DNA of 64,000 nt from an uncultured Planctomycetales bacterium (GTDB lineage Bacteria > Omnitrophota > Gorgyraeia > Aquiviventales > Aquiviventaceae), in NCBI GenBank assembly GCA_964624155.1, contig CAZUWM010000002.1, forward strand, positions 5,159 to 69,158, written 5' to 3'. How positions within the stretch are numbered: position 1 is the stretch's first letter; every line of letters starts with the position of its first letter. The position numbers were made by a program, and so were the translations under genes. This document shows positions 4,910-62,878 of this stretch, in pieces. Below the pieces are notes generated by a model. The model was not told the DNA's origin. It ran no database searches and saw only the letters and a program-made list of their open reading frames with translations.

Positions 4910-4998
4910 CCATAGTCCGCAGTCGATAGTCCATAGTGAGAAATCAAAAAATGCTTCGAGGTTTGTCTATCGACTATGGACTATGGCCTATGGACTAA
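4910..4998. repeat. Inverted heptamer array, CCATAGT arm / ACTATGG arm (3 tandem copies)
   Basis: ccatagtccgcagtcgatagtccatagtg ... cgactatggactatggcctatggacta; between thpR start and pgpA stop. Confidence 0.8.
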
Positions 4999-5463
4999 GT
5001 TCAGGAGGAGAATGGTGTAGGCGGCAGCGCCGACGTCATCGAGCATGATGCCCCACCCCGCCGGCGCTTTCGCGAACCACTTCAAGGGTGGAGGCTTGAC
5101 GATATCGAACAGCCGAAACAGCACAAAGGCGAGCGCCATCATGCCGGGAGCCTGCAGGAGGCTTGGAAACGCCGCGATCGCCGCCCACATGCCCCACACC
5201 TCGTCGATGACGACGAACGATGGATCGTGCGCGCCGGCGGCCCGCTCAGCGCTTGTCGACACCGCCACGCCGATGAGGAGGGCCATGACCAGCAGACCCG
5301 CGCGCAGCGGCGCGGCGTATGACGCCGTGAGACAACCGATCAGCAGCCCGACGCAACTTCCGGCCGTCCCGGGCGCCCAAGGCAGATAGCCGGCACCCCC
5401 GCCGGTGGCGAGGAAGTTAACGAGCCCTTGACATCGTGACATGTCAAGGGCGAGCCGACGCAT
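4981..5463 (-). CDS. pgpA: Phosphatidylglycerophosphatase A
   Basis: PgpA signature ...PWAPGTAGS...; small membrane protein; true start may be internal Met (5442). Confidence 0.8.
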   Translation of the reverse strand: MRRLALDMSRCQGLVNFLATGGGAGYLPWAPGTAGSCVGLLIGCLTASYAAPLRAGLLVMALLIGVAVSTSAERAAGAHDPSFVVIDEVWGMWAAIAAFPSLLQAPGMMALAFVLFRLFDIVKPPPLKWFAKAPAGWGIMLDDVGAAAYTILLLNLVHRP

Positions 5464-6028
5464 CGCGCAAGAGTCCCCGATGGCGCCAGAAAAAACTGGC
5501 TCCTGAGACGATGGTCAAGATCACCGTCACCCACAAGGCCACCGCGATGATCTGTGTCATGACGTGATCGGCGGAGATGGGGAGTGCTGCCGCAAAGGCT
5601 TCTCGGATGATCAAAGAAATCAGGATCAGCACGACGGCCACCATCTGGGAGACCGTTTTATGCTTGCCTTCCTTCGCGGCCGCGATGACGATCTTGCGAT
5701 TGGCCGCGTAGAGTCGCACACCGGTGATGAGGAGTTCCCGAGCGAGAATGACGACCACCATCCAGGCTGGGACGAGACGGAGTTGGACGAAGCTGATCAA
5801 CAAGCCCAGAATGAGGATTTTATCGGCGATGGGATCAAGGAGGGTGCCCAGGGGGCTGGTTTGATTGAATCGCCTCGCGACATACCCATCAAGCCAATCC
5901 GTCAGCGAGGCAAGGGCAAAGAGAAGCAGGCAGACGACTTTCGCCGTCATCCCAGGAACGATCAACAAGCCCATGATCACCACGGTGAGCAGGATGCGAA
6001 GGACGGTGATCTTGGTGGGCAGCGTCAT
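5444..6028 (-). CDS. pgsA: CDP-diacylglycerol--glycerol-3-phosphate 3-phosphatidyltransferase
   Basis: CDP-alcohol phosphatidyltransferase motif DWLDGYVARR...GTLLDPIADK; 194 aa membrane protein. Confidence 0.85.
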   Translation of the reverse strand: MTLPTKITVLRILLTVVIMGLLIVPGMTAKVVCLLLFALASLTDWLDGYVARRFNQTSPLGTLLDPIADKILILGLLISFVQLRLVPAWMVVVILARELLITGVRLYAANRKIVIAAAKEGKHKTVSQMVAVVLILISLIIREAFAAALPISADHVMTQIIAVALWVTVILTIVSGASFFWRHRGLLRDASARP

Positions 6029-7407
6029 GTCAAAGTCGGAAGTGGGAAGTCGGAAGTGGGAAGTGAGATGTTCGCTTCCGCGACCAAATCGTATTCGTAG
6101 GTGTCGGTGATCGTCACTGGGACGATCTGGCCGGGAACCAGCGGTGTGGCGTTCGTCACGTAGACCACCCCGTCCACTTCAGGACAATCGGCTGCGGTAC
6201 GCCCGACAAACTGCGTTGGCTCGGATGGATCGGCCTCGTCAATGATGACCTCGCATCGCCGTCCCAGCCACGTCCGGTTGATCTCCGACGCCACACGCTG
6301 TTGTACCTGCATGAGTTGATCGTAGCGGCGTTGCTTCACCGCCTCCGGAACCTGATCCGGATACCGAAAGGCTGCTGCGCCTTCCTCGTTCGAGTACTGG
6401 AAGGCGCCCAGACGTTCGAATTTCATGTCTTCAATGAACTCGATCAGCGCCTCAAAAGCCCGTTCGGTTTCTCCGGGAAACCCGACAATGACCGCGGTGC
6501 GCAGGGAGATGCCCGGGATCTCCCGCCGGAGTCTCGCCACGCGTTCGCGGATGTGTTCCTGGGTGATCCCGCGGTTCATCCTCATCAGGACGTCGTTGTC
6601 GGCGTGCTCGATGGCCGAGTCGAGATACTTGCAGACGGTGGGGATATCTCGAATCGCTTCGAGAATCTGCGGGGTGATGCCCTTCGGATGGCAGTACAAC
6701 AATCGAATCCAGCGAAGGCCTTGAATCGTTCCTAACGCGGCGAGCAGATCGGCGATGCGCGGCTGACCGTAGAGATCGACACCGTAATCGGAGGTGTCCT
6801 GGCCCACGACAACCAATTCCCTGACTCCCCGCTCCTCAACGAGTCGACGCGCTTCCTCCACGAGATCCTCCATCGGCCGACTCGCCAGAGGCCCCTTGAT
6901 CTTCGGGATGATACAGAAACTGCAGCCTTTCAGGCAGCCTTCAGACACTTTCAGATAGGCATAGTGCGATGGGGTAAGGGCGACGCGGGAAGGCTGCCCG
7001 CGGTGCGGCAGGCGTGGTCGTCGGCGAATGAGTGCGTGGTGTTCACCCTTCAGGACCTTGTGGACGACCGTTTCAATGTCACCAAACCCATCCACCCCAA
7101 CAAACCCATCGACCTCAGGAAGCTCTTTGACCAGTCCTTCTTTGAATCGCTGGACCAAGCACCCGGCGACGACGACCGCCTTGAGCTTCCCTTGCTGCTT
7201 GAGCTCCGCCACCTGCAGCACGGTGTCAATGGATTCTTGGATCGCCTCCTGGATGAAGCTGCACGTGTTGATGATGGCCACATCCGCTTGTTCCAGCGTG
7301 TCGACCACGGTCAAACCGGCTTGTTGTAGCTCGCCCAGATAGAGCTCGGAATCCACCAAGGTTCTGGGACATCCGAGGCTGATCAGATGAACGGTCGGTT
7401 GTCTCAT
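6025..7407 (-). CDS. rimO: Ribosomal protein S12 methylthiotransferase RimO (MiaB-family radical SAM + TRAM)
   Basis: N-terminal ISLGCPRTLVDSE, radical SAM CxxxCxxC (CSFCIIP), C-terminal TRAM; last ~15 aa are encoded by GGAAGTN heptamer repeats. Confidence 0.8.
   Translation of the reverse strand: MRQPTVHLISLGCPRTLVDSELYLGELQQAGLTVVDTLEQADVAIINTCSFIQEAIQESIDTVLQVAELKQQGKLKAVVVAGCLVQRFKEGLVKELPEVDGFVGVDGFGDIETVVHKVLKGEHHALIRRRPRLPHRGQPSRVALTPSHYAYLKVSEGCLKGCSFCIIPKIKGPLASRPMEDLVEEARRLVEERGVRELVVVGQDTSDYGVDLYGQPRIADLLAALGTIQGLRWIRLLYCHPKGITPQILEAIRDIPTVCKYLDSAIEHADNDVLMRMNRGITQEHIRERVARLRREIPGISLRTAVIVGFPGETERAFEALIEFIEDMKFERLGAFQYSNEEGAAAFRYPDQVPEAVKQRRYDQLMQVQQRVASEINRTWLGRRCEVIIDEADPSEPTQFVGRTAADCPEVDGVVYVTNATPLVPGQIVPVTITDTYEYDLVAEANISLPTSDFPLPTLT
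6030..6080. repeat. Tandem GGAAGT(G/C) heptamers x4 with one CTTCC partner
   Basis: gtcggaagtgggaagtcggaagtgggaagtgag; at rimO 3' end / pgsA start. Confidence 0.8.
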
Positions 7408-7447
7408 CTGTGAAATCGATTGTGCAATCTGTGTAATCTGTGGTGTG
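7406..7447. repeat. ATCTGTG heptamer cluster (3 copies)
   Basis: catctgtgaaatcgattgtgcaatctgtgtaatctgtgg; rimO start / rodZ-like end. Confidence 0.75.
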
Positions 7448-8307: not shown

Positions 8308-10485
8308 CTATTCAGAATGGGCGACTTCGGGTCTGGAGAAGATCTCGCGAGGGCGACTGCCCTGGGCCGGTCCGACCAGACCTTCTTGTTCCATCTGATC
8401 AAGGATGCGCGCGGCTCGTCCATAACCCAGCCGTAAGCGGCGCTGGAGAAATGACGTGGACGCCTGGCCGGTCTCCAGGACCAGCCGCTTGGCCATATCA
8501 TACAACTCATCCTTCTCACCCATCAAGCCGAATTCCGCGGGCTGATCTTGTTTGACCAACAACTGTTCATCATAACTCGGAGCGCGTTGGGCTTTCAAGA
8601 AATTCACCAATCGCTCAATTTCTTCATCCGTCACATAGCAGCTCTGGGCGCGAATCGGTTTGGCCGTTCCCGGTCGCAAGAACATCAAATCTCCGCGACC
8701 CAGGAGTTTATCCGCCCCGTTCATGTCCAAGATCGTGCGCGAGTCCACCTTTGACGCCACCTGAAACGCGATGCGAGCCGGAAAGTTGGCTTTAATCACG
8801 CCCGTGATCACGTCAACCGAAGGACGCTGCGTGGCCAGGATGATATGCAGGCCGACCGCTCGAGAGAGCTGGGAGAGCCGCGTGATGGCCTCCTCCACAT
8901 CCTGCGAGGCCACCATCATCAGATCCGCCAATTCGTCGATCACGATGACCAAATATGGAAGACGCTCAAGGCTCGAGGCTCCAGGCTCGAGGTTCTGGTC
9001 TTGCCTTGAGCCTTCAGCTTTCAGCCTAGGGCATCTTTCATTGTAGGCATCGATATTCCTGACCCCAACTTTCGCTAAGACCTGATAGCGACGTTCCATT
9101 TCCGTCACGGCCCAGGCCAAGGCGGCTGCCGCTCGCTTCGCATCCGCGACCACAGGAGCGACCAGATGGGGGATGTCATTGAAGAGTATCAGTTCCACCT
9201 TTTTCGGATCGATCATGAGGAATTTCACGTCATCCGGACTGGCCTGATACAACATCCCGGTCAGCAAGCTGTTCAAGCACACGGTCTTGCCCGATCCGGT
9301 CGCTCCGGCGATCAAGAGATGGGGACACTCGCGCAGGTCCGCCACCAACGGGTGACCTGACACATCCATCCCAATGCCAAGCGCCAGCGGCGAGCGCAGC
9401 TGAGTGAACTCGCGGGAAGTCATCAGGTCTCGCACGTAGACGGTTGTCGCTCGATGGTTGGGCACATCCACCCCCACGAGTCCCTTGCCGGGGATGGGGG
9501 CGATGATATGGCAGCTCGCCGCCTTCAAGACGAGCGCCAAGTCATCAGCGAGCGAGACGATCTTGGTCAGTTTGACTCCGGGAGCGGGTTGGAGTTCATA
9601 CCGGGTCACCGTCGGTCCGCGATCGATGTTGAGCACGGTGGCCTCAATGCCGAATTCCCGCAGGGTCTCCTCCAGAATGCGCGCATTGGTCATTGGGTCT
9701 TCCCCGGGCTCCGCCTGCCGCTGGGCAAGCGGCGGAGGTTGCGTGAGAAGGTCTAACGAGGGCAATTGAAACCCCCCGCTCGTTTGCCGAGCGCGGGCGA
9801 GTTTGGTTGGGGAGAGAGGGGGCGGAATGGTTTTGGGGTTCTGGGTCACGATCGGGTTTCTGATCGATGGCCGTGCTGTTTCAGTGGATCGAACGGCGTG
9901 GTTGGCATCGGCGGATCGCCACGATGAACGTGGGGTCGTGGCCACGGATCGTCTCGTGAAACGCTCGCGGATGGCGTTCCACCAGGTCTGGAGCCCGCTC
10001 ACCCACCGACGAGGAAGAACCCTGGTGTCCACCATCAGCGTCCACGACAAGTAGCCCACACAGAGCGCCAGCAACGCGCTCCCGATGGAGCCTAAATAAT
10101 ACCGGCCGGCCCGAACACCCAGGTAGCCCACGACACCCCCGAGCGCCGTTTGTCGGGTTGGGTCCATCGTACTGAGGGCGATCAAGGTCGAAGCGCTCCC
10201 GAGCAGGAACAGACTCGCAAGGCCTGTGGTGGTCCATCGTCCGTGATCCAGGGTGTTGGTGCGCCACAAGCGGACGGACCAGACGCCCGCCAGGACCGGG
10301 ATGAGGAGCGACGCCCATCCGAATCCTCCCCGCCCGATCAACGCGACCCAAGAACCGACAACACCGCCGATGTTCCGAAGAGGTTGGTTGGGCTCAGAAC
10401 TCAGGAGAGACAAATCTGCGGGATGGTACGACGCGACAGCCAGCAGCACAAACACTCCCGCTGCGCTGATGAAAGCGCTCACCAC
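8308..10485 (-). CDS. ftsK: DNA translocase FtsK/SpoIIIE
   Basis: N-terminal 4-5 TM segments, linker, FtsK ATPase (GATGSGKT Walker A) and gamma winged-helix domain. Confidence 0.9.
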   Translation of the reverse strand: MVSAFISAAGVFVLLAVASYHPADLSLLSSEPNQPLRNIGGVVGSWVALIGRGGFGWASLLIPVLAGVWSVRLWRTNTLDHGRWTTTGLASLFLLGSASTLIALSTMDPTRQTALGGVVGYLGVRAGRYYLGSIGSALLALCVGYLSWTLMVDTRVLPRRWVSGLQTWWNAIRERFTRRSVATTPRSSWRSADANHAVRSTETARPSIRNPIVTQNPKTIPPPLSPTKLARARQTSGGFQLPSLDLLTQPPPLAQRQAEPGEDPMTNARILEETLREFGIEATVLNIDRGPTVTRYELQPAPGVKLTKIVSLADDLALVLKAASCHIIAPIPGKGLVGVDVPNHRATTVYVRDLMTSREFTQLRSPLALGIGMDVSGHPLVADLRECPHLLIAGATGSGKTVCLNSLLTGMLYQASPDDVKFLMIDPKKVELILFNDIPHLVAPVVADAKRAAAALAWAVTEMERRYQVLAKVGVRNIDAYNERCPRLKAEGSRQDQNLEPGASSLERLPYLVIVIDELADLMMVASQDVEEAITRLSQLSRAVGLHIILATQRPSVDVITGVIKANFPARIAFQVASKVDSRTILDMNGADKLLGRGDLMFLRPGTAKPIRAQSCYVTDEEIERLVNFLKAQRAPSYDEQLLVKQDQPAEFGLMGEKDELYDMAKRLVLETGQASTSFLQRRLRLGYGRAARILDQMEQEGLVGPAQGSRPREIFSRPEVAHSE

Positions 10486-12989: not shown

Positions 12990-13087
12990 GAAGTACAGGT
13001 AGTATACTCTCGAATCTCTTAAGCGTCAACGAAAGAACACCGAAAGGGAGCCTCTAAGCCGAGTTCTGTCCCGCCAACGATCTATGG

Positions 13088-13490
13088 CGGAGATGGTCAT
13101 CCATCTGGGTCCCGCCTTACGGCGGGACTCCTGCGGCCCACCTTCCCATAGCCCCCCTGTTTCGTTTTGCTTCGCAGAGCGAAACAAAACGAGGGGGAGC
13201 ACCGGCCGGGCCAGCCGTTATAGGACGTTTGGCCTTGCTCCGCGTAGGGTTTGCCATGCCCCCTTGGTCACCCTCAGGGCGGTGGGCTCTTACCCCACCG
13301 TTTCACCATCACTCCCACCGCTTTGTTTCGCTGCGCGAAGCAAAGCGAAACAGTGGGAGCTGTCTGCTCTCTGTTGCGCTGTCCGTCCCCGGTTTCTCGC
13401 GAAACCAGAGCCTGGGAATTACCCAGTACGCTGCCCTGTGGAGCTCGGACTTTCCTCCCCCCTAGATTGGCTTCGGGGCGACCATCCAGC
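13088..13490 (-). ncRNA. rnpB: RNase P RNA, bacterial type A (ends +/-10 nt)
   Basis: Minus-strand read contains P4 GGGAGGAAAGUCCGAGCUCCACAGGGCA, GGUAAGAGCCCACC, CGGAGCAAGGCCAAA and P1-pairing ends; no ORF in region. Confidence 0.85.
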
Positions 13491-13502
13491 TCCCTTTCGG
13501 TG

Positions 13503-14704: not shown

Positions 14705-14712
14705 GTTCCTTG

Positions 14713-46389: not shown

Positions 46390-46390
46390 A

Positions 46391-53384: not shown

Positions 53385-53390
53385 GAGGAT

Positions 53391-54975: not shown

Positions 54976-57900
54976 CGTTGCAGGACGGCTTGGATCCGTT
55001 TTGAGGCGACAGGCCGATTGCGCTCAAAGGCCTCGCCCATGCTCATCACTTGAAACACTTGTGAGCGGACCGTCAACCAGTTCGCCAACTGCCGAAACCG
55101 TGCCAGCCGATCATCCTCAGTCTCTCCCAACGTCGAGCCGATCAACACATCCCCAATCCCACGGGCTTTGCTGTCTTGATCGCCATAGGGCCGTCCCGCC
55201 ACGATCCGATCGACGATGGCCTCCGTCATCCCCGACAAGCTGAGCAGGACATCGCGTGACGCCGTATTGACGTTGATGCGGCCCACGAGGATGAGCTGGG
55301 GATCACACATCGCATGGAGGAAATGGCACACGTGGCTTTCCGATTCACACCGGATCTCAAGATGCAAGGTCTTCGGATCAGTGACCCCCATGCCCACCGT
55401 CACCTCACCCACAATCAGACGCCCTTGGGCATCGGTGATCCGAGGAGGCGTCCACTCGCCGTCCTCGCTCCATCGCACCGCCATCGTCTCCCCGCTCCAT
55501 CCATACAGACTCAGGCGATACGTCCCGTCGGGGATGTCCGTCCATTCCCAGACGCCAACGGCCTGACCCCCTGCCCCGCTGGTCTCATAGCCCGTCAGCG
55601 TCTCATGCCATCGATCCCCTCCGCCCAGGAGCGTGGCGGCTTGGCTTTCCAGTCGCAAGCCATCAACCGTCAGTTGATCGACAATCACCGCCAGGTCGTG
55701 GCTCTCCACCGGCTTCCACGCGATGCTGCTGGCCAACCCCGCCAACTCTCCCAATGAGCCCAGCGGTCGATTCAAAATGGTGATTTCCGTCGAGGGATCG
55801 TGCCGAATTTGCTCTTCTCCCGCCACCTCTAAGAGGCCTTCGTTATCGTTCGCCTCGCCGGGGGTGTATTGCTTCAGCGATGGATACCAATCCTCATCAA
55901 GCCCATCTTTGTCATCGTCGAGCACCACGGTCGGATCGCCCTTTTCAAGGCTCTGAAACCCCACGGAGGTGGGGAGTGGAATGCGGTACTCAATCTCATC
56001 CACCACCCACCCCTGGCGGTCCTTCAGCGCCAGCCGGGCGGAGGAAGCATCGGGCGGGAGGGTGCTGATGAGCCAATCCATATCGGGACTCAAGTCGCCC
56101 TCTTCTTCAAGGAATTCAAGCTGCACCACATTGGCATCATCCCGCATCTCCCACGCCGCCAGCGCCGTGATGTCGTTCTCCAGGCCGGGCTGCGTATCAT
56201 CCACGTCCACCGCCGCCACCAACACGCCGTGAGCAGGAATCTTGGCCCCCTCCGGCAGCGACACGGTCCGCATGGCCGCGATCCCTTCGATGGTCCAGCG
56301 GCTCACATCGACCTCCTGGTCGCTGAGGTTGATGAGCTCCACATACTCGCCGTCAGGCTCAAGGGACAACGACACCTTCTCAAAATAGTATGTCACCTCG
56401 CCGGCGGTTTTGCCAAGAGAGACGCGAAATTTTGTTTTCTTCGGCTGCTGCTCACCCGCCTGGGGGACTTCCACCACGATCAACGGCTCGTCATGCCGAG
56501 CCCCGTGGAAGGAGACGGTCGAGCTGCTGTTGATTTTTCCCACAGCGCTCCCAGATTGCCCATAGACCCGAAGGTGATACTTCCCCGGAGGGACGTAGTT
56601 GGATTGTCCCGCGGTCGTCGTCCACTCCCATTCAGCCGATCCCACCCCGCTGTTCGTGCAGGTGCTGGAGGCACATGACCAAGCGGAATTGCCTTTCGAA
56701 AAGGTGGCCGCACTCACCGTCAACTCGACCACCGGCGAGACCATCAACTCATTGAATCGCACCGCCTCGATGCCCCGCACGACCGTCCCTCCGCTCGTCG
56801 GCGGTTCGGTGGGCACGAGCTCCACGCCGCGAAACGCACACGAGCTGTCTTCGGCCTCGCGACAGGTCAGTTCCACCGTCATCGTCTCGCTGGTCAGTTT
56901 CAGCGTCCCAAACGTCTCATCGGAATCGAGGGAGGGTTTCGACTCCCCGTTGATCGTGACATCGCCCACTTTCGTTCCGGAAAGGCCCCGCACGATGACC
57001 TGGAAGGTGCCAAGAGGGACGGAGAGCGCCCAGGCAAGCGCAGACTCTGACGGGCTGCTGAGGTAATGACCCTCTGGTTGCGCCTGCCACGTCCAACTGC
57101 CCTGGTCGCCTTGGTTGGCCATCTCGTAGGGCGTGCTGTGCCGCACCACCTTGGAGAGGGCGAGGTCCGTATCGATGTAATCCGCCATATTGGCCGCGAG
57201 CTGCCAGGGATCGGCCCCGCCTTTTTCCAGCAAGGCGTTGAGGATTTCTTCGGCGGTGGCGGTATTGACGTTCAACCGCGGTTGGCCGGTGATGCTGAGA
57301 TTCGTATCCCAACTATACACCGTGGCGACGGTTGACAGCTTGGTGAAGGTCGCCTCATCCAACTCGCTGAGCGACAGCACGTCTTCCAGGGTTTCGAAGC
57401 GTCGATCATCCCCTCGCAAGGCCAGCGGCTGATACTCGTCCGGCTCATCCACCGTCCCATCACCGTCATCATCAATGTTGCCACGGCCTGGCTGACCATC
57501 CTCGCCGAAGCGGTAGCTCTCGACCGAGGTCGCGAGGGAGCCGGGCACGCCGATCTTCGAAAACAGCGAGGTGAGGCTCATGCCATCGACCCCATGAGCC
57601 GCTGGATCGGCCAGGGCGACGTTGAGATTCACCTTGCCCGCTTCATCCCTGATCAAGACGCCATAGCGTCCCCCCACCTCGCCGTGGCTGTTCGCCACCA
57701 GCCACCACCGGGCGTCAACGGTGTCATCCTCATCCACATCGACATCGGAGCCGGTCATCGCATCGACCCACGCCTCCGTCAGGTCGTCATAGCGCGATCC
57801 GAGCTGATCCTCATCCAACACGACCCACCCATGGGCGACACCGGCTTCCGCGATATACCGGGCTTGCGTTGAGGCGACGAATTGTTTGGCGGCCTGGGTT

Positions 57901-58085
57901 TCGAGAAACATCGAGAACACGAACGAGACCCCCATGATCGCCACGACGGTGAGCACGCTGACGACGATGAGCAGCGCAATCCCCCGCTCTCCAATGCGGA
58001 ATGGGGAATGGGGAATGGGGAATCTAAGCCTTCCATTCCAAATTCCAAATTCCGAATTCCGAATTCGATCAGCTGGTGGGGACAT
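54972..58085 (-). CDS. Giant GspK/PilX-like minor pseudopilin (~1040 aa)
   Basis: N-terminus ...ERG|IALLIVVSVLTVVAI (GspK-type, no Glu5); two ComEA/HhH-like LNVNTAT / INVNTAS motifs typical of T2SSK; ~700 aa of extra beta-rich sequence. Confidence 0.6.
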   Translation of the reverse strand: MSPPADRIRNSEFGIWNGRLRFPIPHSPFRIGERGIALLIVVSVLTVVAIMGVSFVFSMFLETQAAKQFVASTQARYIAEAGVAHGWVVLDEDQLGSRYDDLTEAWVDAMTGSDVDVDEDDTVDARWWLVANSHGEVGGRYGVLIRDEAGKVNLNVALADPAAHGVDGMSLTSLFSKIGVPGSLATSVESYRFGEDGQPGRGNIDDDGDGTVDEPDEYQPLALRGDDRRFETLEDVLSLSELDEATFTKLSTVATVYSWDTNLSITGQPRLNVNTATAEEILNALLEKGGADPWQLAANMADYIDTDLALSKVVRHSTPYEMANQGDQGSWTWQAQPEGHYLSSPSESALAWALSVPLGTFQVIVRGLSGTKVGDVTINGESKPSLDSDETFGTLKLTSETMTVELTCREAEDSSCAFRGVELVPTEPPTSGGTVVRGIEAVRFNELMVSPVVELTVSAATFSKGNSAWSCASSTCTNSGVGSAEWEWTTTAGQSNYVPPGKYHLRVYGQSGSAVGKINSSSTVSFHGARHDEPLIVVEVPQAGEQQPKKTKFRVSLGKTAGEVTYYFEKVSLSLEPDGEYVELINLSDQEVDVSRWTIEGIAAMRTVSLPEGAKIPAHGVLVAAVDVDDTQPGLENDITALAAWEMRDDANVVQLEFLEEEGDLSPDMDWLISTLPPDASSARLALKDRQGWVVDEIEYRIPLPTSVGFQSLEKGDPTVVLDDDKDGLDEDWYPSLKQYTPGEANDNEGLLEVAGEEQIRHDPSTEITILNRPLGSLGELAGLASSIAWKPVESHDLAVIVDQLTVDGLRLESQAATLLGGGDRWHETLTGYETSGAGGQAVGVWEWTDIPDGTYRLSLYGWSGETMAVRWSEDGEWTPPRITDAQGRLIVGEVTVGMGVTDPKTLHLEIRCESESHVCHFLHAMCDPQLILVGRINVNTASRDVLLSLSGMTEAIVDRIVAGRPYGDQDSKARGIGDVLIGSTLGETEDDRLARFRQLANWLTVRSQVFQVMSMGEAFERNRPVASKRIQAVLQR
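57996..58067. repeat. GGAATGG x4 followed by (A/G)AATTCC x4 (inverted arms)
   Basis: 5' end of giant GspK-like gene / 3' end of GspJ-like gene; translated as NSEFGIWNG...FPIPHSPF. Confidence 0.8.
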
Positions 58086-58674
58086 ACACGACGGTCTCAA
58101 ACTGTTCCGGTTTCTTCGCGCCGATCGTCACGGTGATCCGAATCGCTTTGGGGACTCGGGCTTCCTGCTCGCCATCCTCCCGCCCATCCCATGCCGTCAG
58201 CCACTGCGTGCCATCGAAATACGACAGCTCCAGTCCAACGACGTCGGTCCCGCACACCTCATCCGTGCCGGTGGCTTCGTAATCGCCGTCCGCAGGCTCG
58301 TCATCATGGCACATGAACTCGTGCTCGCTGTTGAGCCAATACCCCCGCTCCACAAGGCCGGAGCGCCCGGCCAGGACCCCGACGAAAAACACCTCGTCTT
58401 GCGTGCTGTCCTCTTTGAATCGGGTGGCCTCGGCGTCGTTGCCCACAAACGGATACCGCTCCTGGGTCAGACACGAACCGAGTTCCCTCGCGAAGAGATC
58501 AAACAGGAGACGAGCTTGTTGATAGCGCTCCGTCCGCAACTGCCCGCTGCGCCACGTCTGCGTGATCCCGCGGAACATCAGCATCGTCGAGCCCGTGATG
58601 GTGATGAGAATCGCCATCGCGATCATCAGTTCCACCAACGTCAGCCCCTGGGGTCGGGGCTCTACATTTGACAT
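58069..58674 (-). CDS. GspJ/PilW-like minor pseudopilin
   Basis: MSNVEPRPQG|LTLVELMIAMAIL prepilin motif; ~200 aa. Confidence 0.6.
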   Translation of the reverse strand: MSNVEPRPQGLTLVELMIAMAILITITGSTMLMFRGITQTWRSGQLRTERYQQARLLFDLFARELGSCLTQERYPFVGNDAEATRFKEDSTQDEVFFVGVLAGRSGLVERGYWLNSEHEFMCHDDEPADGDYEATGTDEVCGTDVVGLELSYFDGTQWLTAWDGREDGEQEARVPKAIRITVTIGAKKPEQFETVVYVPTS

Positions 58675-58741
58675 TGCAGGGCGCGAGGAGTCTCGGTCCG
58701 ACCCCATGGTCTGTTCTTGACGATTTTTTACCCTGAACCCG

Positions 58742-59185
58742 TTAACTTTTAGGCTTGCGGAGGTAGGTCACCAGATCAAGGGTTCGACCGCGGCCCTCCT
58801 GCGCCCACCCTACCGAGACGGTCACCCGCTTGAGACTGGTCGGATCCACCACGTCCTCGACCTCCGGTTGATCGATCGTCAGGACGATGGTGTAGTCTTC
58901 TTCAGTCGTCGTGGAACTCCCCACGGCGAGGTCGTCCCAGGACGTGAGTTTGGTTGAGGCCATGGTGCGTTCGGCCAACAGAGTGGCTCGACTGACCTGC
59001 TCCGCGCGACGAGAAGCCCGCAGGCCCATCGGGAAGACCCGCATGGATCCCACGAGTCCGACGGAAAGGATCCCAATGGCGATGACGACTTCCACTAACG
59101 AGAAGGCGGAAGGCGGAAGGCGGAAGGCGGAAGTAGTTTTCCACTTCCCACTTCCCACTTCCCACTTCCCACTTCGACAAGTCAT
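58742..59185 (-). CDS. GspI/PilV-like minor pseudopilin
   Basis: ...PPSA|FSLVEVVIAIGILSVGL prepilin-like N-terminus; 27-aa leader encoded by GGAAGGC/CACTTCC heptamer repeats; ATGA overlap with gspF-like gene supports the start. Confidence 0.55.
   Translation of the reverse strand: MTCRSGKWEVGSGKWKTTSAFRLPPSAFSLVEVVIAIGILSVGLVGSMRVFPMGLRASRRAEQVSRATLLAERTMASTKLTSWDDLAVGSSTTTEEDYTIVLTIDQPEVEDVVDPTSLKRVTVSVGWAQEGRGRTLDLVTYLRKPKS
59089..59176. repeat. GGCGGAA/GGAAGGC x4 followed by CACTTCC x5 (inverted arms)
   Basis: Encodes leader peptide of GspI-like pseudopilin. Confidence 0.85.
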
Positions 59186-60249
59186 CCGAGGATCTTGGTG
59201 AGTGAGAGCAACGGCAGGAACATGGCAATCACAATGAAGCCCACAATCCCACCCACGCCGACAATCAACAAAGGCTCAAGCAGCTGCGTCAACCCCCCCA
59301 GCATCACCTCGACCTCTTCCTCGTAGTTATCCGCCAACTGGACGAGCATCCGATCGAGCTGGCCGGTCTCCTCGCCGAGGGCCACCATCCGGGAGACGAG
59401 CGGCGGAAACGCCCCGGAGACTTCGATGGGACGGGCCAGGGATTCACCGGCGCGCAGACTCCGCTCCACGTCCTGCAAGGCATCATCCAGGACCGCGTTG
59501 GAGACGGTCATGCGGACCGTTTCCAAGGCGTTCAGGATCGGCACCCCGCTGGAGAGCAACGTTCCAAACGTCCGGGCGAAGCGCGCGATGAGGAGCTTGT
59601 GAATGAGGGTCCCGAAGAGCGGCAGTCCCAACAGTAATCGGTCGACCTGCCGTTTTCCGCCGGGGGTCTTCATCAGCGCTTGGAGCAGCGCCACGAATCC
59701 TGCGGCGGCGATCGCCACCAACCACCACCATTGACGCACGATATTGCACAGGATGATCAAAATCCGCGTGGGCAGGGGCAAGGCGGAGCCCAGCTCGGTG
59801 AACATCCCCATGAAGGTGGGGACCACGAAGGCCATCAGGATGATCAAGATGCTCACGGCGGCGAACATCACAAAGGCCGGATACATCAAGGCGCCGCGCA
59901 CGCGATCGCGCAGCCGTTGTTGTTTTTCCATCACCTCGGCGAGCCGCTTGAGGATTTCTTCAAGGAGCCCGCCGACTTCTCCGGCCCGCACCATATTGAT
60001 GTAAAACGGAGGGAAACACCGTGGATGCCGCGAGAACGCTTCGGAGAGCTTGACGCCCGCTTCCACGTCACTGGCGACCAGGGTAAAGACTTGGCGCAAG
60101 GACCCCGGTTCCAGTTGGTCGCTGACGGTACGGAGGGATCGCAGCAGCGGCATGCCGGCTTTCACGAGGGTCGCCAACTGCCGGGTGCACACGACCAGTT
60201 GAGCGCGCGAGGCGCCGCCAAACCGGAATCGCCCCCGCGAAGCCATCAC
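59182..60249 (-). CDS. GspF/PilC-family inner-membrane platform protein
   Basis: T2SF repeats, 3 TM; 355 aa. Confidence 0.8.
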   Translation of the reverse strand: MMASRGRFRFGGASRAQLVVCTRQLATLVKAGMPLLRSLRTVSDQLEPGSLRQVFTLVASDVEAGVKLSEAFSRHPRCFPPFYINMVRAGEVGGLLEEILKRLAEVMEKQQRLRDRVRGALMYPAFVMFAAVSILIILMAFVVPTFMGMFTELGSALPLPTRILIILCNIVRQWWWLVAIAAAGFVALLQALMKTPGGKRQVDRLLLGLPLFGTLIHKLLIARFARTFGTLLSSGVPILNALETVRMTVSNAVLDDALQDVERSLRAGESLARPIEVSGAFPPLVSRMVALGEETGQLDRMLVQLADNYEEEVEVMLGGLTQLLEPLLIVGVGGIVGFIVIAMFLPLLSLTKILG

Positions 60250-61400
60250 GGGCCGCGTTGAACGGCAAGATCACCAACGTGGAGGGCATCGGCATTCTCA
60301 GGAGCAATCAAATCGCACGCCGCAAGTTGTGGACGCACGCGGACCGCAACCGCTCGTCCGATCATCTCAACCCCGCGCACCAGGTCGAACGTCATCCCGA
60401 CGCGGACCCCCTCCTCGGCACCCTGGTTGATGATGAGAAAACGATGGGGGGGATTGACCTCAAGCACGTGGGCACGGATGGCTGCCATGGTGGGGGGCCG
60501 TTCCTTGCGGACGATGATCGGAGGCAGTTCGACCGTCTGCGAACCGACGCCTCCCCCTTGCTGTGAGCGGCGTGCCTCCTCCACCAACGTGTTGGTGTGG
60601 GGGCGCGGCTCCGTGGGTCGGGGAGCGGATGATGCGTTGGCCGGCTCCTGGGGCCTCGCCGGCTTGACGACGACCCCTGACGGCGAGAGGATCGGCAGGG
60701 GAGTGTGTTGAGGAGCGTTCGAGGAATCCAGAGGCCGTTCAGGTGTCTGAAGGACCGGAGCGTGGCCTTGGAAATTCACGGCATCCGATGAGAGCGAGGC
60801 GTCCGAAGGAGCGCTGGTCACCGTCTGCGGGATGATCGGCCACACGGCCTCCACGCGAGGCGGGAGGATCCCACCTGTCGTTCCGGTTGAAACGGCTGGG
60901 CCGCCTTGGGTCAGTTGACGTTCGAGCGCCGCCACCCGTTCACGCATCTGCCGGTAATCGCGATCGGCCAGGGTCAGGCGATTCCGAAGGCGTGCCGCCA
61001 CGTGTTCCAGGTCTCTTTTCTCTTCTTCCAGACGACGAGCCTGGTCTTTGGCGTCGTTGCGCTCCCGTGCGAGTCGAGCGACTTCAATTTCAAGACGCGC
61101 CTTCTCGTTTTGAAGCGCGTCATGGCGCACTTGGACGTCACGAAGGGCCGCGAGTTCCTGGGTCGCCGTGGTGAGCTGCCCTCGCACGCTCTCAAGACGC
61201 CGCTCCAATTCGCTGCGCTCAGTCTGCAGTTGATCGAATTGTTGTTGAAGCGCTTGGTTCTGTTCTTTCAGCGTGCTGATGGCTTGTTCTTTCGCCGCAA
61301 CGTCTTGCTTCAAGCGGGTCAGTTGCAGCCACGGCCCAATGGCGAGCCCCGCCATCCCGAGCACACCCACCACTCCAAAGGCGATCAACGGCCGATTCAT
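60246..61400 (-). CDS. Membrane-anchored coiled-coil protein with Pro/Ser-rich linker and conserved C-terminal beta-rich domain
   Basis: TM, ~150 aa coiled coil, C-terminal FLIINQGAEEGVRVGMTFDLVRG... homologous to C-terminus of 41439..42221. Confidence 0.5.
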   Translation of the reverse strand: MNRPLIAFGVVGVLGMAGLAIGPWLQLTRLKQDVAAKEQAISTLKEQNQALQQQFDQLQTERSELERRLESVRGQLTTATQELAALRDVQVRHDALQNEKARLEIEVARLARERNDAKDQARRLEEEKRDLEHVAARLRNRLTLADRDYRQMRERVAALERQLTQGGPAVSTGTTGGILPPRVEAVWPIIPQTVTSAPSDASLSSDAVNFQGHAPVLQTPERPLDSSNAPQHTPLPILSPSGVVVKPARPQEPANASSAPRPTEPRPHTNTLVEEARRSQQGGGVGSQTVELPPIIVRKERPPTMAAIRAHVLEVNPPHRFLIINQGAEEGVRVGMTFDLVRGVEMIGRAVAVRVRPQLAACDLIAPENADALHVGDLAVQRGP

Positions 61401-62636
61401 CTAGGCTTGGATGAACACCTCACGAATCACCCAGCAGGCGGCTCCTAACGCGACCGCCTGATCTCCTAATTTCGCCGGCAACACATCCACGAGACTCGCG
61501 TGCTCTTCGTAGGCGTACCGTTTCACGGCCCGCCACACCGGCTCCAGCAGGAATGAATCAGCCTGTTCAATCCCTCCCCCGATCACGACGACCTCAGGAT
61601 TCAGGAGGTTAACGATGGTGGCGATGCGAACGCCCAATTGCAAGGCGGAATGCTCGATGAGCTCTTTCGCGAGTTGATCACCCGCGTGGGCGGCTTTGAT
61701 GACCACGTCCATCGTCAACTCATCGAGGTGGCCATTGACCAATTCCTTCATCGTGGAGGCGTTCCCTTCCCCGATGAGTTTCTTCGCCTGGTTGGCCAAG
61801 CCGAGATCCCAGACATTGGAGACGAGGAATCCGGGGCCTTTGATCCACGTGATGTAATCATCGTTGTTGGGCACCGAGATGCCGACTTCCCCGGCGCTGC
61901 CGCATGAGCCCCAATAGACATGGCCGTTCAAGATCAGACTAGCCCCGACATCCGAGTAGAGGTAGACCATGTTCTCCACGCGACGATCCAGGCCGAGTCG
62001 ATACTCTCCGTAACCCGCGAAGCTCGCGTCGTTGCCGATGAAGACGGGCATCTTGAACTCGCTTTCCCACCGACTTTGGAGGGCCAAGTAACTCGTTCGG
62101 CTGCCGCGATGCGAGGAGGTATCGCGGACGGTTCCTGCCCGCTCATCCAAGATCCCACCGACCCCAATGGCGATCCCCTGGATTTTTTTCGGATCCACGG
62201 GACTGGTGGTGAGCACGTCACGAATGAGCTCGACCGCTTGCGCCAGCGCCTCATCCATCGTCGTGATGGCGCGGGATCGAGTCCGTTGATGCACGATGCT
62301 CCCGCGCAGATCCGTGATGAGGCCTCGCATCGTGACATGGGGGACGTTCATCGGTCCGACATCCACCCCGATCGCAAAGCCGGATTTCGCGTGGAGCTCG
62401 ACCAGCACGGGTTTCCGACCGCCGGTGGACACATCAAATCCTCGCTCCACCACCAGCCCGTGCTTGATGAAATCCGCCACGTAGTTGGAGACGGTCACGA
62501 TGTTGAAACCGGTGCCTTGCGACAACTCGGTCCGCGTCATCGGTCCCCGTTGGCGGATGAGCTCAAGCAAGCTCAAGCTCTTTTGTTCCCGTTCCGTGAG
62601 CCGATGATCTTCGAGCAGGGTCCGTCGTCGAATCAT
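61401..62636 (-). CDS. ROK-family transcriptional regulator (NagC/Mlc-like; N-terminal wHTH + sugar-kinase fold)
   Basis: HTH LLELIRQRGPMTRTELSQGTGFNIVTVSNYV; ROK glycine-rich regions; zinc motif partly degenerate (WGSCGSAGE). Confidence 0.75.
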   Translation of the reverse strand: MIRRRTLLEDHRLTEREQKSLSLLELIRQRGPMTRTELSQGTGFNIVTVSNYVADFIKHGLVVERGFDVSTGGRKPVLVELHAKSGFAIGVDVGPMNVPHVTMRGLITDLRGSIVHQRTRSRAITTMDEALAQAVELIRDVLTTSPVDPKKIQGIAIGVGGILDERAGTVRDTSSHRGSRTSYLALQSRWESEFKMPVFIGNDASFAGYGEYRLGLDRRVENMVYLYSDVGASLILNGHVYWGSCGSAGEVGISVPNNDDYITWIKGPGFLVSNVWDLGLANQAKKLIGEGNASTMKELVNGHLDELTMDVVIKAAHAGDQLAKELIEHSALQLGVRIATIVNLLNPEVVVIGGGIEQADSFLLEPVWRAVKRYAYEEHASLVDVLPAKLGDQAVALGAACWVIREVFIQA

Positions 62637-62783
62637 GGTTCGACTCCGCTCACCATGACCCTGAGCAAACGAAGTGCGTCGAATGGGTCATCCCCCCACC
62701 TGTCTGTTGATCGCCATGCGAAAACTTTCTTTCAGACTATTGTTGAGGACTTTTAGAAGATTGTCAAGCAACGACTTACAACA

Positions 62784-62878
62784 TCACAGATGGCACAGAG
62801 ACTCCACAGATGGCACAGATACATTCCCTCTGTGGTTCTCTGTGTTCTCTGTGGTGTGTATCTGTGCTATCTGTGGTT
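62784..62878. repeat. Palindromic array: CACAGAT x4 / TCTGTG x5
   Basis: Between glycoside hydrolase stop and ROK regulator start. Confidence 0.85.

Follow-up and report, generated by a model that had tools for sequence, protein, structure and literature searches.

Palindromic heptamer-type repeat arrays at gene ends look like fast-evolving, gene-less selfish DNA

The 64-kb stretch of DNA analyzed here (the window) contains arrays of short tandem repeats in inverted orientation that are enriched at gene ends, fold stably and overlap coding sequence, and that turn over rapidly between related genomes. They have the appearance of selfish DNA that evolves fast, more than that of a regulatory code peculiar to this genome. 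Being palindromic, dispersed, and gene-less, they are comparable to MITEs and REP elements, and we consider the chances somewhat better than even that they are elements of this kind, which were reshaped by slippage and survive where the compact genome tolerates them. The main family, with the unit CACAGAT at 13 sites, resembles the arms around a small PD-(D/E)XK nuclease gene (GxxExxY, TIGR04256 / PF13366) but lacks the gene.

CACAGAT and ATCTGTG matched the window 43 times, compared with 8.33 ± 2.87 matches in dinucleotide shuffles, none of which reached 43. GGAAGNNGGAAGNNGGAAG matched 8 times and a three-unit CACAGAT pattern 4 times, with 0 matches expected for either. Tandem Repeats Finder returned paired arrays with a period of 7–9 across the window (Table 1), and all four examples cited in the initial annotation of this DNA (20988-21170, 46391-46500, 62784-62878, and 59089-59176) agreed with their earlier description. 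Each array opens with 1–10 copies of a 7–10-nt unit and continues with a second block built from the complementary unit, and the polarity is uniform, with the CACAGAT or GGAAG-type unit first and its complement second. The window holds the families CACAGAT, GGAAGNN, GGAATNN, GTCCA-core, and GCTSRAG, the last of which is confined to one site in FtsK. Heptamer units, as originally proposed, are present, but the period of the CACAGAT family is 7–10 nt and not strictly 7. About half of the CACAGAT sites are small (1–3 units) or single-armed (7395-7442, 27556-27584, 38813-38850, 50400-50439, and 53405), and a lone heptamer within a gene at position 5550 is probably a chance match. The annotation was right to set the arrays apart from CRISPR, as the units are only 7–10 nt long and there are no spacers, and its comparison with heptanucleotide STRR-type repeats was upheld. 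The arrays are not GC hairpins of the terminator type either. The arm/anti-arm layout, which it had regarded as distinguishing, had been described before in Xanthomonas (PMC4692102) and in Geobacter metallireducens (PMC2700814).

Most arrays were predicted to form stable RNA stems, in line with the hairpins proposed earlier. Folding z-scores relative to shuffles were −5 to −7 for the CACAGAT and AGTCCAT arrays and −2 to −4.9 for the GGAAG/GGAAT arrays, whose GGAAG-type arms pair across a 5-nt core only (5 of 7 nt). The exception was the array at 23935-24035, which folded no better than shuffles (z +0.4).

Table 1 Repeat arrays in the window, with folding of the RNA where values are available.
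Position	Strand	Repeat units	Location	Tandem Repeats Finder	Fold
4907-4997		AGTCCAT x ~4, 30-nt loop, ATGGACT x4	Covers PgpA stop (4981), stops short of LigT ATG (4899)	4907-4937 / 4967-4997	−38 kcal/mol, z −6.3
6033-6079		GGAAG-core heptamers on + strand (CTTCCSA x4 on mRNA strand), essentially single arm	MiaB end
7395-7445	-	Three CACAGAT units on mRNA strand	Between RodZ stop (7450) and MiaB
8964-9027		GCTSRAG x4 / CTYRAGC x3 hairpin	In frame within FtsK motor domain	8964-8992 / 9003-9027
20988-21170		Largest CACAGAT array, ~5 + 10 units	PilO end / next protein start	21025-21166
23941-24029		GGAAGGG x3, then CTTCCGA-type x ~7 (GGAAGTC on mRNA strand)	Start region of pseudopilin-locus gene	23941-23959 / 23964-24029
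26272-26306		Small CACAGAT/ATCTGTG hairpin (GTGATTACACAGA...ATCTGTGAAATCAC)	Right after T2SS-F stop (26322)
27556-27584	+	Two CACAGAT units (AUCUGUG on mRNA)	Between T2SS-E stop (27603) and T2SS-F
31479-31502		One-unit CACAGAT hairpin	Between PilT and MshEN-domain gene
34709-34782		CACAGAT-family hairpin element, ~100 nt	After RodA stop, upstream of conserved promoter		z −5.0
35874-35907	+	Two CACAGAT units (AUCUGUG on mRNA)	Between PBP2 and RodA
38813-38850	-	Two exact CACAGAT units + CACGGAT on mRNA strand	MreB-to-MreC junction region
46388-46500		CACAGAT x5 / ATCTGTG x5	Between secretin stop (46512) and LacI-type regulator ATG (46389)	46388-46494	−52.7 kcal/mol, z −6.6
50400-50439	+	Four CACAGAT-type units, single arm	Adjoins conserved promoter-like site (TTGACA at 50391)
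53405-53420	-	CACAGAT + CACAGTG	Right after stop of Big_13 protein gene
54872-54970		(CCGTCCA) x4, 40 nt, (ATGGACT) x3 on mRNA strand; complementary over GTCCA/TGGAC core	N-terminal coding region of Big_13 protein	54872-54894 / 54937-54970
57993-58066		GGGGAAT x4.4 / ATTCCAA x4.6 (GGAAUUY then AUUCCCC on mRNA)	Between pseudopilin 2 and conserved GspK start	57993-58023 / 58035-58066	z −2.1
59101-59175		(GAAGGCG) x4.6 / (CCACTTC) x5	Entire leader-peptide coding region (mRNA strand)	59102-59133 / 59141-59175	z −4.9
62785-62875		CACAGAT/CACAGAG x4, then CTCTGTG/ATCTGTG x5	Just upstream of conserved promoter-like site (62767)	62785-62875

The stop codon of a called gene lay within 100 nt of 12 of the 13 CACAGAT sites, compared with 17.5% of random positions (P ~1e-8). 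Almost all arrays had been placed exactly at gene boundaries; this strong enrichment bears out the association but not the word "exactly", because several arrays are not intergenic. They reach into the ends of the neighbouring coding regions, or in one case into the interior of FtsK, and so contribute to a leader peptide, a membrane anchor, C-terminal tails, and an FtsK loop. The array at 6033-6079 encodes the C-terminal tail of MiaB (ISLPTSDFPLPTLT, up to the stop) immediately ahead of the ATGA overlap with PgsA, and the MiaB ATG (7407) itself falls within the last CACAGAT unit (CAGATGA) of the array at 7395-7445. Read on the mRNA, the largest array specifies the C-terminal tail of PilO and the N-terminal tail of the following protein in its 5' arm, and the hydrophobic anchor FSVCSVVLCAFICVLCAAVLSV of that second protein in its 3' arm. 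The array in the Big_13 protein gene, which starts at 54975 in an ATGA overlap with GspK, lies on either side of the signal/anchor segment, and the long GspK frame is open throughout the array at 57993-58066. The leader peptide encoded by the array at 59101-59175 extends from an ATG at 59185, in an ATGA overlap with T2SS-F, to the prepilin motif AFSLVEVVIAIG. The FtsK array, which was also recovered in an independent assembly (L001), lengthens a loop by ~13 residues, and this extra loop is visible in an alignment with the FtsK of a relative. A junction-specific function does not explain the FtsK-loop and other in-coding arrays.

Comparison with relatives (~87–91% identical DNA) revealed a rapid turnover of the arrays. 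In relative L003, the PgpA-LigT junction carries GTGACAA x4 / CTTGTCG x4 in place of the AGTCCAT array and the MiaB-PgsA junction carries GGAATGC x3 / GAATTCN x4, the RodZ-MiaB site is empty, and at the PilO array the homology stops at ...LTYVT and restarts at YDAKGKRDPFVPL. Three further samples of this strain have the PilT-MshEN hairpin unchanged, L206 has a variant hairpin at the site, and in L207 it reads CGCGGAT/ATCCGCG; the element after RodA is missing from both of these close relatives. No target-site duplication could be defined, which counts against the mobile-element reading. In L444, GGGGACACAAA hairpins occupy the place matching 50400-50439, a GGGGACACAAA hairpin that matching 62785-62875, and (AGTGATTA)4 / (CTCAATCA)5 the junction at 53405-53420. 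The site of the Big_13 array holds (CGTATCT)4.3 + (TTCTGCC)5 in L444 and a GGGGACA hairpin + (CTGTTCA)4 in L445. At the site of 57993-58066, L445 has no array and L444 a different hairpin, and at 59101-59175 both carry unrelated units. L444 possesses its own families (GTGATTR x22 and GGGGACAC x11 in 20 kb), whereas CACAGAT, with its 43 matches in the window, reaches at most one match per locus in the relatives.

The description of the arrays as genome-local thus applies to their abundance only, since the CACAGAT element also occurs in diverse phyla, where it brackets GxxExxY genes. When 185,579 species genomes were searched for a run of three CACAGAT units, at least 120 stretches matched in very diverse bacteria and some archaea, compared with ~7 expected by chance from a uniform-composition estimate made without control heptamers; Scytonema HK-05 and Pedobacter are examples of isolate or near-complete genomes among the carriers. 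Among the matches listed, the element reads CACAGAT x3 then ATCTGTG x3, the CACAGAT block precedes the ATCTGTG block in ~71 clusters (2 were mixed), the units recur every 10 nt (241 gaps) or 9 nt (90 gaps), and the distance between the arms is bimodal (0–150 nt or 350–550 nt). Three of these listed loci contain a GxxExxY / PDDEXK_3 gene inside the arms (E ~1e-42). Conversely, among 67 testable metagenome loci selected by GxxExxY homology alone, 56 were bracketed by inverted repeats that exceeded the 99th percentile for shuffled flanks and 46 carried at least two CRCNRAW units per side, with the consensus GGAACC-RCAGAT-GAA-CRCAGAT... The GxxExxY alignment shows no variation at the catalytic D...ExK residues. 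The window has the CACAGAT unit in common with cassette arms across phyla, and its array at 62785-62875 opens on the mRNA strand with the sequence that canonically bounds these arms on the outside, GGAACCACAGAT. As neither a GxxExxY gene nor a transposase or other cargo was found within the 64-kb window, no autonomous partner can be named for this genome, another point against the mobile-element reading. Only CACAGAT was tied to cassette arms, with no cargo link found for the GGAAGNN, GGAATNN, GTCCA, and GCTSRAG families; GGAAGGC/CTTCCGC arrays were found in other genomes too.

An unlikely, if conceivable, alternative is that the arrays are RNA hairpins selected by the host as determinants of processing or stability, as 3' end hairpins lacking a U-tract, or as enforcers of translational coupling through a stem right after an ATGA overlap. 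The computed stems are consistent with such a role, several arrays start directly after ATGA overlaps, others separate the end of an operon from a conserved promoter, and the change to CGCGGAT/ATCCGCG at PilT-MshEN is compensatory. Four related genomes also have arrays at the junctions occupied here, with different units and arms that are complementary within each genome, which could mean a positional function rather than mere tolerance. However, one array sits inside an FtsK domain loop, some junctions are occupied in one relative but empty in another, and the conservation of the unit across phyla is unexpected for pure structure. The incomplete pairing of the GGAAG-type arms and the shuffle-like folding of one such array also argue against it, no U-tract follows the stems, and a terminator scan flagged no array as a whole. 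Neither the folding energy, which showed no asymmetry favouring the mRNA strand, nor the mismatches in the cassette arms (71 G.U vs 74 A.C) were biased by strand. Pure in-place slippage and template switching at pre-existing small hairpins, with neither mobility nor a trans-acting partner, appears decidedly unlikely. At 59101-59175 the units are 100% identical inside each arm, whereas 2 of 7 positions differ from one arm to the other, a pattern suggestive of slippage in place and not of transposition; GCTSRAG is a single-site unit, and units at one junction are loosely alike among relatives (GAAGTGG, GACGTGC, GAGTGATT). Heptamer repeats are over-represented in bacteria, and polymerase slippage was proposed as the cause (PMC4692102). 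Such a process fits poorly with one unit at 13 sites in 64 kb, with other genome-specific families in the relatives, and with a stereotyped cross-phylum architecture of fixed polarity, conserved outer boundaries, and nuclease cargo.

It is quite improbable that the arrays are DNA sites bound by a nucleoid-associated protein or global regulator specific to this genome, a role that had been guessed for paired tandem-repeat sites in Geobacter metallireducens (PMC2700814). A conserved core with variable spacer positions (CACAGAT + 2–3 nt, GGAAG + 2 nt), the 10-bp phasing of the cross-phylum family, which places the units on one helix face, and the promoters adjoining some arrays would suit this explanation, but a 7-nt period puts consecutive sites on different faces, arrays lie in coding regions or between genes coupled in translation, where a promoter would not be expected, close relatives have different units in their place, and no candidate regulator was identified. 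Phase variation, in which gain or loss of a 7-nt unit shifts the frame or alters the 5' region of pilus and secretion genes, is very improbable. The unit length is not divisible by three, and the 5' coding regions of several pilin-like genes contain arrays; yet the length polymorphism between strains that the annotation proposed to look for was not seen, as copy number did not differ among four near-identical strains of one relative or, at the arrays covered, among four samples of the window strain. This constancy also counts against the selfish-element reading. Moreover, housekeeping junctions also carry arrays, and the arm/anti-arm layout is unnecessary for such a switch. An assembly or contamination artefact, which the annotation would have read from identical arrays in unrelated taxa, has a practically negligible probability. 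Identical CACAGAT arrays do exist in such taxa and one Logan contig (L001) terminates within an array, but three other, independently assembled sequencing runs reproduce the arrays covered, reading frames continue in frame through arrays, and the elements are present both in genomes from isolates or close to completeness and at orthologous sites of the relatives.

According to the selfish-element reading that we prefer, palindromic short-tandem-repeat elements would insert as selfish or near-neutral, putatively mobile DNA, with the CACAGAT family as a "solo" form of the GxxExxY cassette arms and a presumed role of the nuclease. Replication slippage inside each arm would further remodel these elements. 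They might persist only at harmless places, namely between cistrons, past operon ends where the next promoter follows, in parts of proteins such as leader peptides, membrane anchors at the N-terminus, and C-terminal tails, and in one FtsK surface loop. The seeming preference for pilus and secretion loci, described earlier as striking, is better accounted for by tolerance, because the N-terminal leaders and anchors of these genes have few sequence constraints; arrays are also located at the housekeeping junctions PgpA-LigT, MiaB-PgsA, RodZ-MiaB, MreB/MreC, and PBP2-RodA. At the molecular level the arrays would probably act as stems of double-stranded RNA, although action at the RNA level is not supported by strand asymmetry, a point against the mobile-element reading. 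By analogy, a transcribed stem of 20–45 bp would be an RNase III substrate or a protective 3' hairpin: the CACAGAT arrays resemble the GACAGAT-repeat stem in the intervening sequence of Coxiella 23S rRNA, where three tandem GACAGAT heptamers lie in a 28-bp terminal stem, the repeat copy number differs among strains, and RNase III cleaves within the stem (PMC4990558).

The CACAGAT unit and its complement occur 43 times in the window, compared with 8.3 ± 2.9 times in shuffled sequences, and runs of three GGAAGNN units were found eight times against an expectation of zero. Paired blocks were located at ~20 places by Tandem Repeats Finder and an inverted-repeat search. An automatic arm/anti-arm detector was too strict for irregular arrays, and we therefore compiled the array sites from Tandem Repeats Finder output, from counts of the patterns and by reading the sequence directly. 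At the four examples cited in the initial annotation, direct reading of the sequence agreed with the description of a block of units followed by a block of the complementary unit. The arrays contain one to ten units at an irregular spacing of 7-10 nt, and many are one-armed. In folding calculations, stems of the CACAGAT and AGTCCAT arrays reached z-scores of -5 to -7, and the GGAAG/GGAAT arrays formed 5-bp helices split by 2x2 internal loops (z of -2 to -4.9), with one array of this type folding no better than shuffled sequences. Folding energies revealed no preference for the mRNA strand. The arrays are a real feature of this DNA.

The window has a G+C content of 59.9% and carries nearly all genes on the minus strand. 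Encoded are the housekeeping proteins LigT, PgpA, PgsA, a MiaB-like enzyme, RodZ, FtsK, PNPase, RpoD, DnaG, MreBC, PBP2 and RodA as well as two type II secretion/type IV pilus-like loci, and the nearest relatives of PNPase, PilT and GspK belong to Candidatus Omnitrophota metagenome-assembled genomes. Many of the genes overlap by ATGA and hence leave almost no spacer DNA. The siting of the arrays at gene boundaries, as initially proposed, is borne out by a stop codon within 100 nt of 12 of the 13 CACAGAT sites (P about 1e-8), but several arrays are translated and therefore not strictly intergenic (see table). These repeats can be read as protein, namely as a leader peptide, a membrane anchor or an enzyme loop. 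The leader and anchor residues encoded by arrays would belong to the pseudopilin (58742-59185) and the PilP-like protein (20647-21114), respectively. In the array following PilO, hydrophilic tails are encoded by the CACAGAT arm and a hydrophobic stretch, FSVCSVVLCAFICVLCAAVLSV, by the ATCTGTG arm, the latter at the position of the membrane anchor in a relative. Exactly this hydrophilic-then-hydrophobic order results when a purine-rich arm precedes its complement. The apparent preference of the arrays for pilus and secretion loci is explained by N-terminal leaders and anchors, which tolerate nearly any sequence of this kind. Arrays mislead start-codon calling in these genomes and break short-read assemblies: a short-read contig of the window's strain (L001) ends, and a run of N in a relative (L445) lies, within such repeats, which indicates that they break or mask assemblies.

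Positions of arrays and other features in the window and in comparison loci from other genomes, samples or viral contigs (L-numbers)
Sequence	Positions	Strand	Feature	Observation
Window	4077-4412	-	ORF	Matches part of the PIN-domain profile (38-115 of 120 positions)
Window	6033-6079		Array	Encodes MiaB C-terminal tail
Window	7395-7445		Array site	Partial (G)GAACC/GGTT(CC) boundary, AAACCACACCACAGAT
Window	7407		MiaB ATG	CAGATG start codon
Window	8964-9027		Array	In frame in FtsK motor domain loop, ~13 residues extra compared with relative
Window	13039-13497	-	RNase P RNA	Bacterial, class A, 247 bits
Window	13153-13357		Long inverted repeat	Inside RNase P RNA, unrelated to arrays
Window	14631-14875	-	tRNA-Val/tRNA-Met	Hairpin between the genes
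Window	14714-14797		Hairpin between tRNAs	27-nt arms, 93% complementary, containing ACATTTG-type repeats
Window	20988-21170		Array	CACAGAT then ATCTGTG; spans conserved PilO end (...LTYVT) to conserved YDAKGKRDPFVPL of next protein, replacing all between
Window	26272-26306		Array	CACAGAT then ATCTGTG
Window	31479-31502		Array	CACAGAT then ATCTGTG
Window	34381-34566	-	Leader	5' of small ORF and GGDEF diguanylate cyclase operon; promoter-like TTGACA...TATGATATAGT in front
Window	34709-34782		Array	CACAGAT then ATCTGTG
Window	46388-46500		Array	CACAGAT then ATCTGTG
Window	46437-46449		5-bp sub-hairpin	Flagged in terminator scan
Window	50363-50391	-	Promoter-like	TTGACA-17-TACGAT; kept in L444
Window	50400-50439		Array	Adjoins promoter-like sequence
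Window	53405		Array site	Partial boundary, GGAACACAGAT
Window	54872-54970		Arrays	Either side of Big_13 protein signal segment
Window	59101-59175		Array	Whole pseudopilin leader-peptide region, from ATG to prepilin motif AFSLVEVVIAIG
Window	62739-62767	-	Promoter-like	TTGACA-17-AACAAT; kept in L444
Window	62785-62875		Array	CACAGAT then ATCTGTG; adjoins promoter-like sequence; begins GGAACCACAGAT on mRNA strand
L001	4431-4491		Contig end	Stops exactly within FtsK array
L003	7898-7963		Hairpin between tRNAs	Other short repeat
L004	~9190-9235		28-nt insertion	CCCCCC...GGGGGG hairpin in RNase H-to-S15 spacer
L010	650-1350		CACAGAT elements	Prevotella contig, three in tandem within 700 nt
L126	~900-1500		GxxExxY cassette	Nested or triplicated arm sets
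L146	~1050-1620		GxxExxY cassette	Complete solo hairpins on both sides
L303	206-318		Array, viral contig	Outer GGAAGGC/CTTTCCGC arm pair around inner GGCACAGAG repeats
L444	1730-1770; 17712-17746		Hairpins	GGGGACACAAA...TTTGTGTCCCC family
L445	~6337-6346		Run of N	Inside hairpin

Relatives at ~81–97% protein identity provide a natural time series in which arrays sit at the same junctions but have had their units replaced by unrelated ones. We compared GCA_001804415.1 (L002-L005; PNPase 81% identical to the window), GCA_016206725.1 (L444; GspK 87%), GCA_964342925.1 (L206 and L445; PilT 97%, ~90% DNA identity) and other samples of the window's strain (L001, L208-L210). In the pseudopilin leader, the window has (GAAGTGG)5/(CTTCCGC)4.6, GCA_964342925.1 has GACGTGC/GCACGTC units and GCA_016206725.1 has (AGTGATTR)3/(CTCAATCA)4.5. 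Between PgpA and LigT, an AGTCCAT array in the window corresponds to a GTGACAA array in GCA_001804415.1, and this genome lacks the window's arrays between RodZ and MiaB and between PilO and the next gene. The array downstream of RodA is absent from GCA_964342925.1 and from L207, a further relative (PilT 88%). Between pilin 2 and GspK, the window array is missing in GCA_964342925.1 and a different hairpin is found in GCA_016206725.1, whereas between pilin 1 and pilin 2 GCA_964342925.1 has an array and the window has none. The abundance of each array family is genome-specific: the 43 CACAGAT copies in the window compare with at most one per relative locus, and 20 kb of GCA_016206725.1 contain 22 GTGATTR units and 11 GGGGACAC hairpins. 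Within each genome the two arms stay complementary. In L444, the 8-mer family AGTGATTR/CTCAATCA was observed at three or more junctions, and GGGGACACAAA...TTTGTGTCCCC hairpins (11 half-sites per 20 kb) sit at junctions that hold CACAGAT arrays in the window.

The arrays had been regarded as a genome-local family, and this does not hold. With each of 185,579 species represented by a single genome, a scan for three CACAGAT units separated by 1-5 nt returned at least 120 stretches, compared with ~7 expected by chance according to our own uniform-composition estimate. The matches listed came from diverse bacteria and archaea, including Prevotella, Brocadiia, Scytonema, Patescibacteria, Acidobacteria, Planctomycetes and Streptomyces. 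Many of them share a stereotyped element, AACC-CACAGAT-nnn-CACAGAT-nnn-CACAGAT, followed by a centre of 5-100 nt and ATCTGTG-nnn-ATCTGTG-nnn-ATCTGTG-GTT. Among the listed matches, the CACAGAT block almost always comes first, the unit period is 10 nt (241 gaps) or 9 nt (90 gaps), and the distance between the arms is bimodal, with 0-150 nt or 350-550 nt. Arm/anti-arm arrays of unrelated heptamers were met incidentally in many of the unrelated genomes examined. Searches of 210 loci for three GGAAGNN units or two AGTCCAT units gave no match. In viral contigs, the three-unit CACAGAT query matched mostly on a single strand; four-unit GGAAG matches had an arm/anti-arm layout in 8 of 113 cases, and some contigs contained GGAAGGC/CTTCCGC arrays. 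The nesting in the viral contig L303 indicates two unit families within one element.

In three of the listed CACAGAT loci, a gene of ~125 codons lies between the arms. It encodes a GxxExxY protein (TIGR04256) of the PD-(D/E)XK nuclease family PDDEXK_3 (PF13366; E about 1e-42), a family listed as of unknown function with ‘multiple transfers’ (PMC3424549). In a reverse test, 80 metagenome loci were picked solely for a relative of this protein, and 67 of them had enough flanking sequence. The flanking inverted repeats exceeded the 99th percentile of shuffled flanks in 56 of these 67 loci, and 46 carried two or more CRCNRAW units on both sides. The cassette consensus is GGAACC-RCAGAT-GAA-CRCAGAT-GAA-CRCAGAT ... 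ATCTGYG-TTC-ATCTGYG-TTC-ATCTGYGGTTCC, and the ATG of the gene often lies within CAGATG. The protein alignment shows no variation at the predicted catalytic residues (D, ExK). The arm unit is kept across loci whose proteins share no more than 50-70% identity, a pattern that argues for sequence-specific recognition rather than pairing alone. Neither PDB sequences nor PHROGs nor PADLOC contained a match to the GxxExxY protein, our literature search found no paper on the cassette arms, and no GxxExxY ORF occurred in a further set of loci that included viral contigs. Most elements in other genomes have no PDDEXK_3 gene between their arms, and the few non-GxxExxY interiors between CRCNGAT arms (170-750 nt) look non-coding. 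The layouts of L126, L146 and L010 suggest insertion into or beside existing elements.

The window arrays share with the cassette arms the CACAGAT unit, which lies within the CRCNGAT consensus, the order of the CACAGAT and ATCTGTG blocks and, at MiaB, the CAGATG start codon. The outer GGAACC...GGTTCC boundary of the cassettes recurs at 62785-62875, is partial at two further sites and is not evident at the remaining ones. The cassette arms have three units with a 10-nt period, unlike the irregular and often one-armed window arrays, and they enclose a nuclease gene, whereas a six-frame hmmsearch detected no PDDEXK_3/GxxExxY gene in the window. Since most elements elsewhere are likewise without cargo, the window arrays would be solos, i.e. 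gene-less elements.

A similar design is known from the 23S rRNA intervening sequence (IVS) found in Coxiella burnetii, a selfish 428-nt element with a small ORF, whose inverted repeats at the two ends pair into a 28-bp stem that is cut internally by RNase III (PMC4990558). Directly before the start codon of the ORF, this IVS has three tandem copies of GACAGAT, two or three depending on the strain (PMC4990558), a unit which, as given there, is one base apart from CACAGAT. In both the IVS and the window arrays, a long stem arises from terminal inverted repeats with a 5' arm of tandem heptamers, and folding of the window arrays yields stems of at least ~20 bp built of such heptamers, the Coxiella side of this comparison being taken from the paper. 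The IVS are located in helix 25 or 45 of 23S rRNA (helix 45 in Coxiella) and carry an S23p four-helix-bundle ORF, whereas the window arrays lie in mRNA or at gene junctions and have no cargo. The window arrays are not themselves 23S rRNA IVS, as Rfam identified RNase P RNA and two tRNAs only and no rRNA gene in the window. The Coxiella IVS is the sole member of the wider class with experimentally shown activity; by analogy, RNase III might cut the stem in array transcripts.

In their layout, the arrays belong to a type of repeat that is known but still unexplained. Heptamer repeats are more frequent than expected in the intergenic DNA of bacteria, with inverted pairs on record for Xanthomonas and Geobacter, and the question of their origin and role is decades old. 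Xanthomonas GGGAATC and Nostoc GGGGAYT arrays are 89-93% intergenic and lie within tens of nt of ORF ends, with 70-75 convergent inverted GGGAATC pairs per Xanthomonas genome, and the Xanthomonas arrays vary in length and sequence from species to species but keep their positions (PMC4692102). Their GGGAAT core resembles a GGGGAAT array of the window; however, these repeats are described as G-quadruplex formers with one dominant unit per genome, and neither translation nor a cargo gene is reported (PMC4692102). In Geobacter metallireducens, families that are particular to the species and consist of 3-5 tandem units of 7-9 nt form opposite-strand pairs between genes, e.g. proB-proA, which are absent in the sister species, have variable inter-site distances and were proposed to be IHF/HU binding sites (PMC2700814). 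REP/REPIN sequences and MITEs are, like the window arrays, genome-specific short palindromes at gene ends that are present or absent between close relatives, and a trans-acting nuclease or transposase has been proposed for them too. In contrast to these, the window arrays have arms that are internal tandem arrays of short units instead of a single imperfect palindrome of ~20-40 nt, which in REP/REPIN often occurs as inverted doublets, and no RAYT (IS200/IS605-type TnpA) or other transposase gene was found in the window, where Pfam scans of large ORFs gave no real match to a transposase-type family. CRISPR arrays consist of direct repeats of ~23-55 nt with unique spacers of similar length and were rightly dismissed in the initial annotation, as the units here are 7-10 nt long, abut or lie 1-4 nt apart, and form a second block of reverse complements. 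The STRR of heterocystous cyanobacteria are tandem CCCCAGT, TTGGTCA or CAACAGT. These units differ from those in the window, whose organism belongs to the Omnitrophota according to its PNPase, PilT and GspK relatives. STRR and the TAACTGA repeats of Beggiatoaceae are also intergenic tandem heptamers near start codons with a patchy distribution across phyla, but they have other units and form direct arrays almost exclusively (169 direct sets versus one indirect in ‘Maribeggiatoa’; PMC4679880). Intrinsic terminators, with a GC stem and U-tract, do not fit, since no T-run occurs 3' of the arrays; within arrays, a scan of positions 45000-64000 flagged just one 5-bp sub-hairpin, and terminator-like sites in this region were as numerous as in shuffled sequences. 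No array matched a known RNA family at Rfam 15 gathering scores, and a permissive search gave sub-threshold miRNA-precursor hairpin matches only.

On balance, we slightly favor the interpretation that the window arrays are selfish palindromic elements and the CACAGAT sites their gene-less solos. This is indicated by a polarity that is fixed and ends that are conserved, by the nuclease cargo, by bursts specific to single genomes and by differences in presence or absence. The perfectly identical units within an arm indicate that slippage then reshapes the elements. Against a selfish origin, the window contains neither a cargo gene nor a transposase, and the non-CACAGAT families have no link to cargo. 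In addition, no target-site duplication was definable at the RodA element, as the three relatives have diverged too far in their intergenic sequences for the element ends to be placed. The recurrence of arrays at the same junctions could also reflect a function in the host RNA, for example enforced translational coupling or 3' end hairpins, the latter before the two conserved promoters (62767 and 50391). We consider such a function rather unlikely: the counts of G.U (71) and A.C (74) mismatches in the cassette arms show no strand asymmetry as a sign of RNA-level selection, and the placement of arrays in a protein loop and in protein tails argues against any junction-bound function. Pure slippage appears less probable still. 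Protein-binding sites, phase variation or an artefact each rank below both of these alternatives. Between strains, no copy-number polymorphism was seen: four near-identical strains of GCA_001804415.1, separated by 21 SNPs and a single GC hairpin of 28 nt, differ at no array, and four samples of the window's strain were identical at the arrays covered. The sole indel among the four strains is this hairpin.

Beyond the proposed selfish origin of the window arrays, we tentatively raise the possibility, which we regard as doubtful at present, that CRCNGAT arrays and the GxxExxY nuclease constitute an unrecognised cross-phylum class of mobile mini-cassettes, with the ORF-bearing 23S rRNA IVS as a special case and MITE-like solos. 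The phased units would be binding sites of the nuclease or form its cruciform or hairpin substrate, and gene-less solos might multiply in a MITE-like manner before slippage reshapes them. Compact genomes such as the one studied here may even recruit solos to encode leader peptides and membrane anchors, given that hydrophilic residues come from the purine-rich arm and hydrophobic ones from its complement. The cross-phylum nuclease link, the likeness to rRNA IVS and the translated arrays set the window arrays apart from an ordinary repeat family. The question of heptamer origin and role becomes testable here for three reasons: a conserved small nuclease gene, enclosed by the same arms in many phyla, is a concrete partner, and these arms resemble the RNase III-cleaved stems of rRNA IVS; the relatives form a time series of replaced units; and the repeats can be read as protein. 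If the nuclease link is true, one mobile-element family would account for much of the ‘unexplained repeat’ content in many bacterial genomes as well as for how rRNA IVS arose.

Further features of the window include the leader of the GGDEF operon, which is kept in two relatives and had sub-threshold matches only, to c-di-GMP-I riboswitch variants (E 0.1-0.2) and Clostridiales-1 (E 0.0055). At the place of the ORF with the partial PIN-domain match, a relative has a full MazE and PIN pair followed by two further genes, and thus the gene content 3' of LigT differs.
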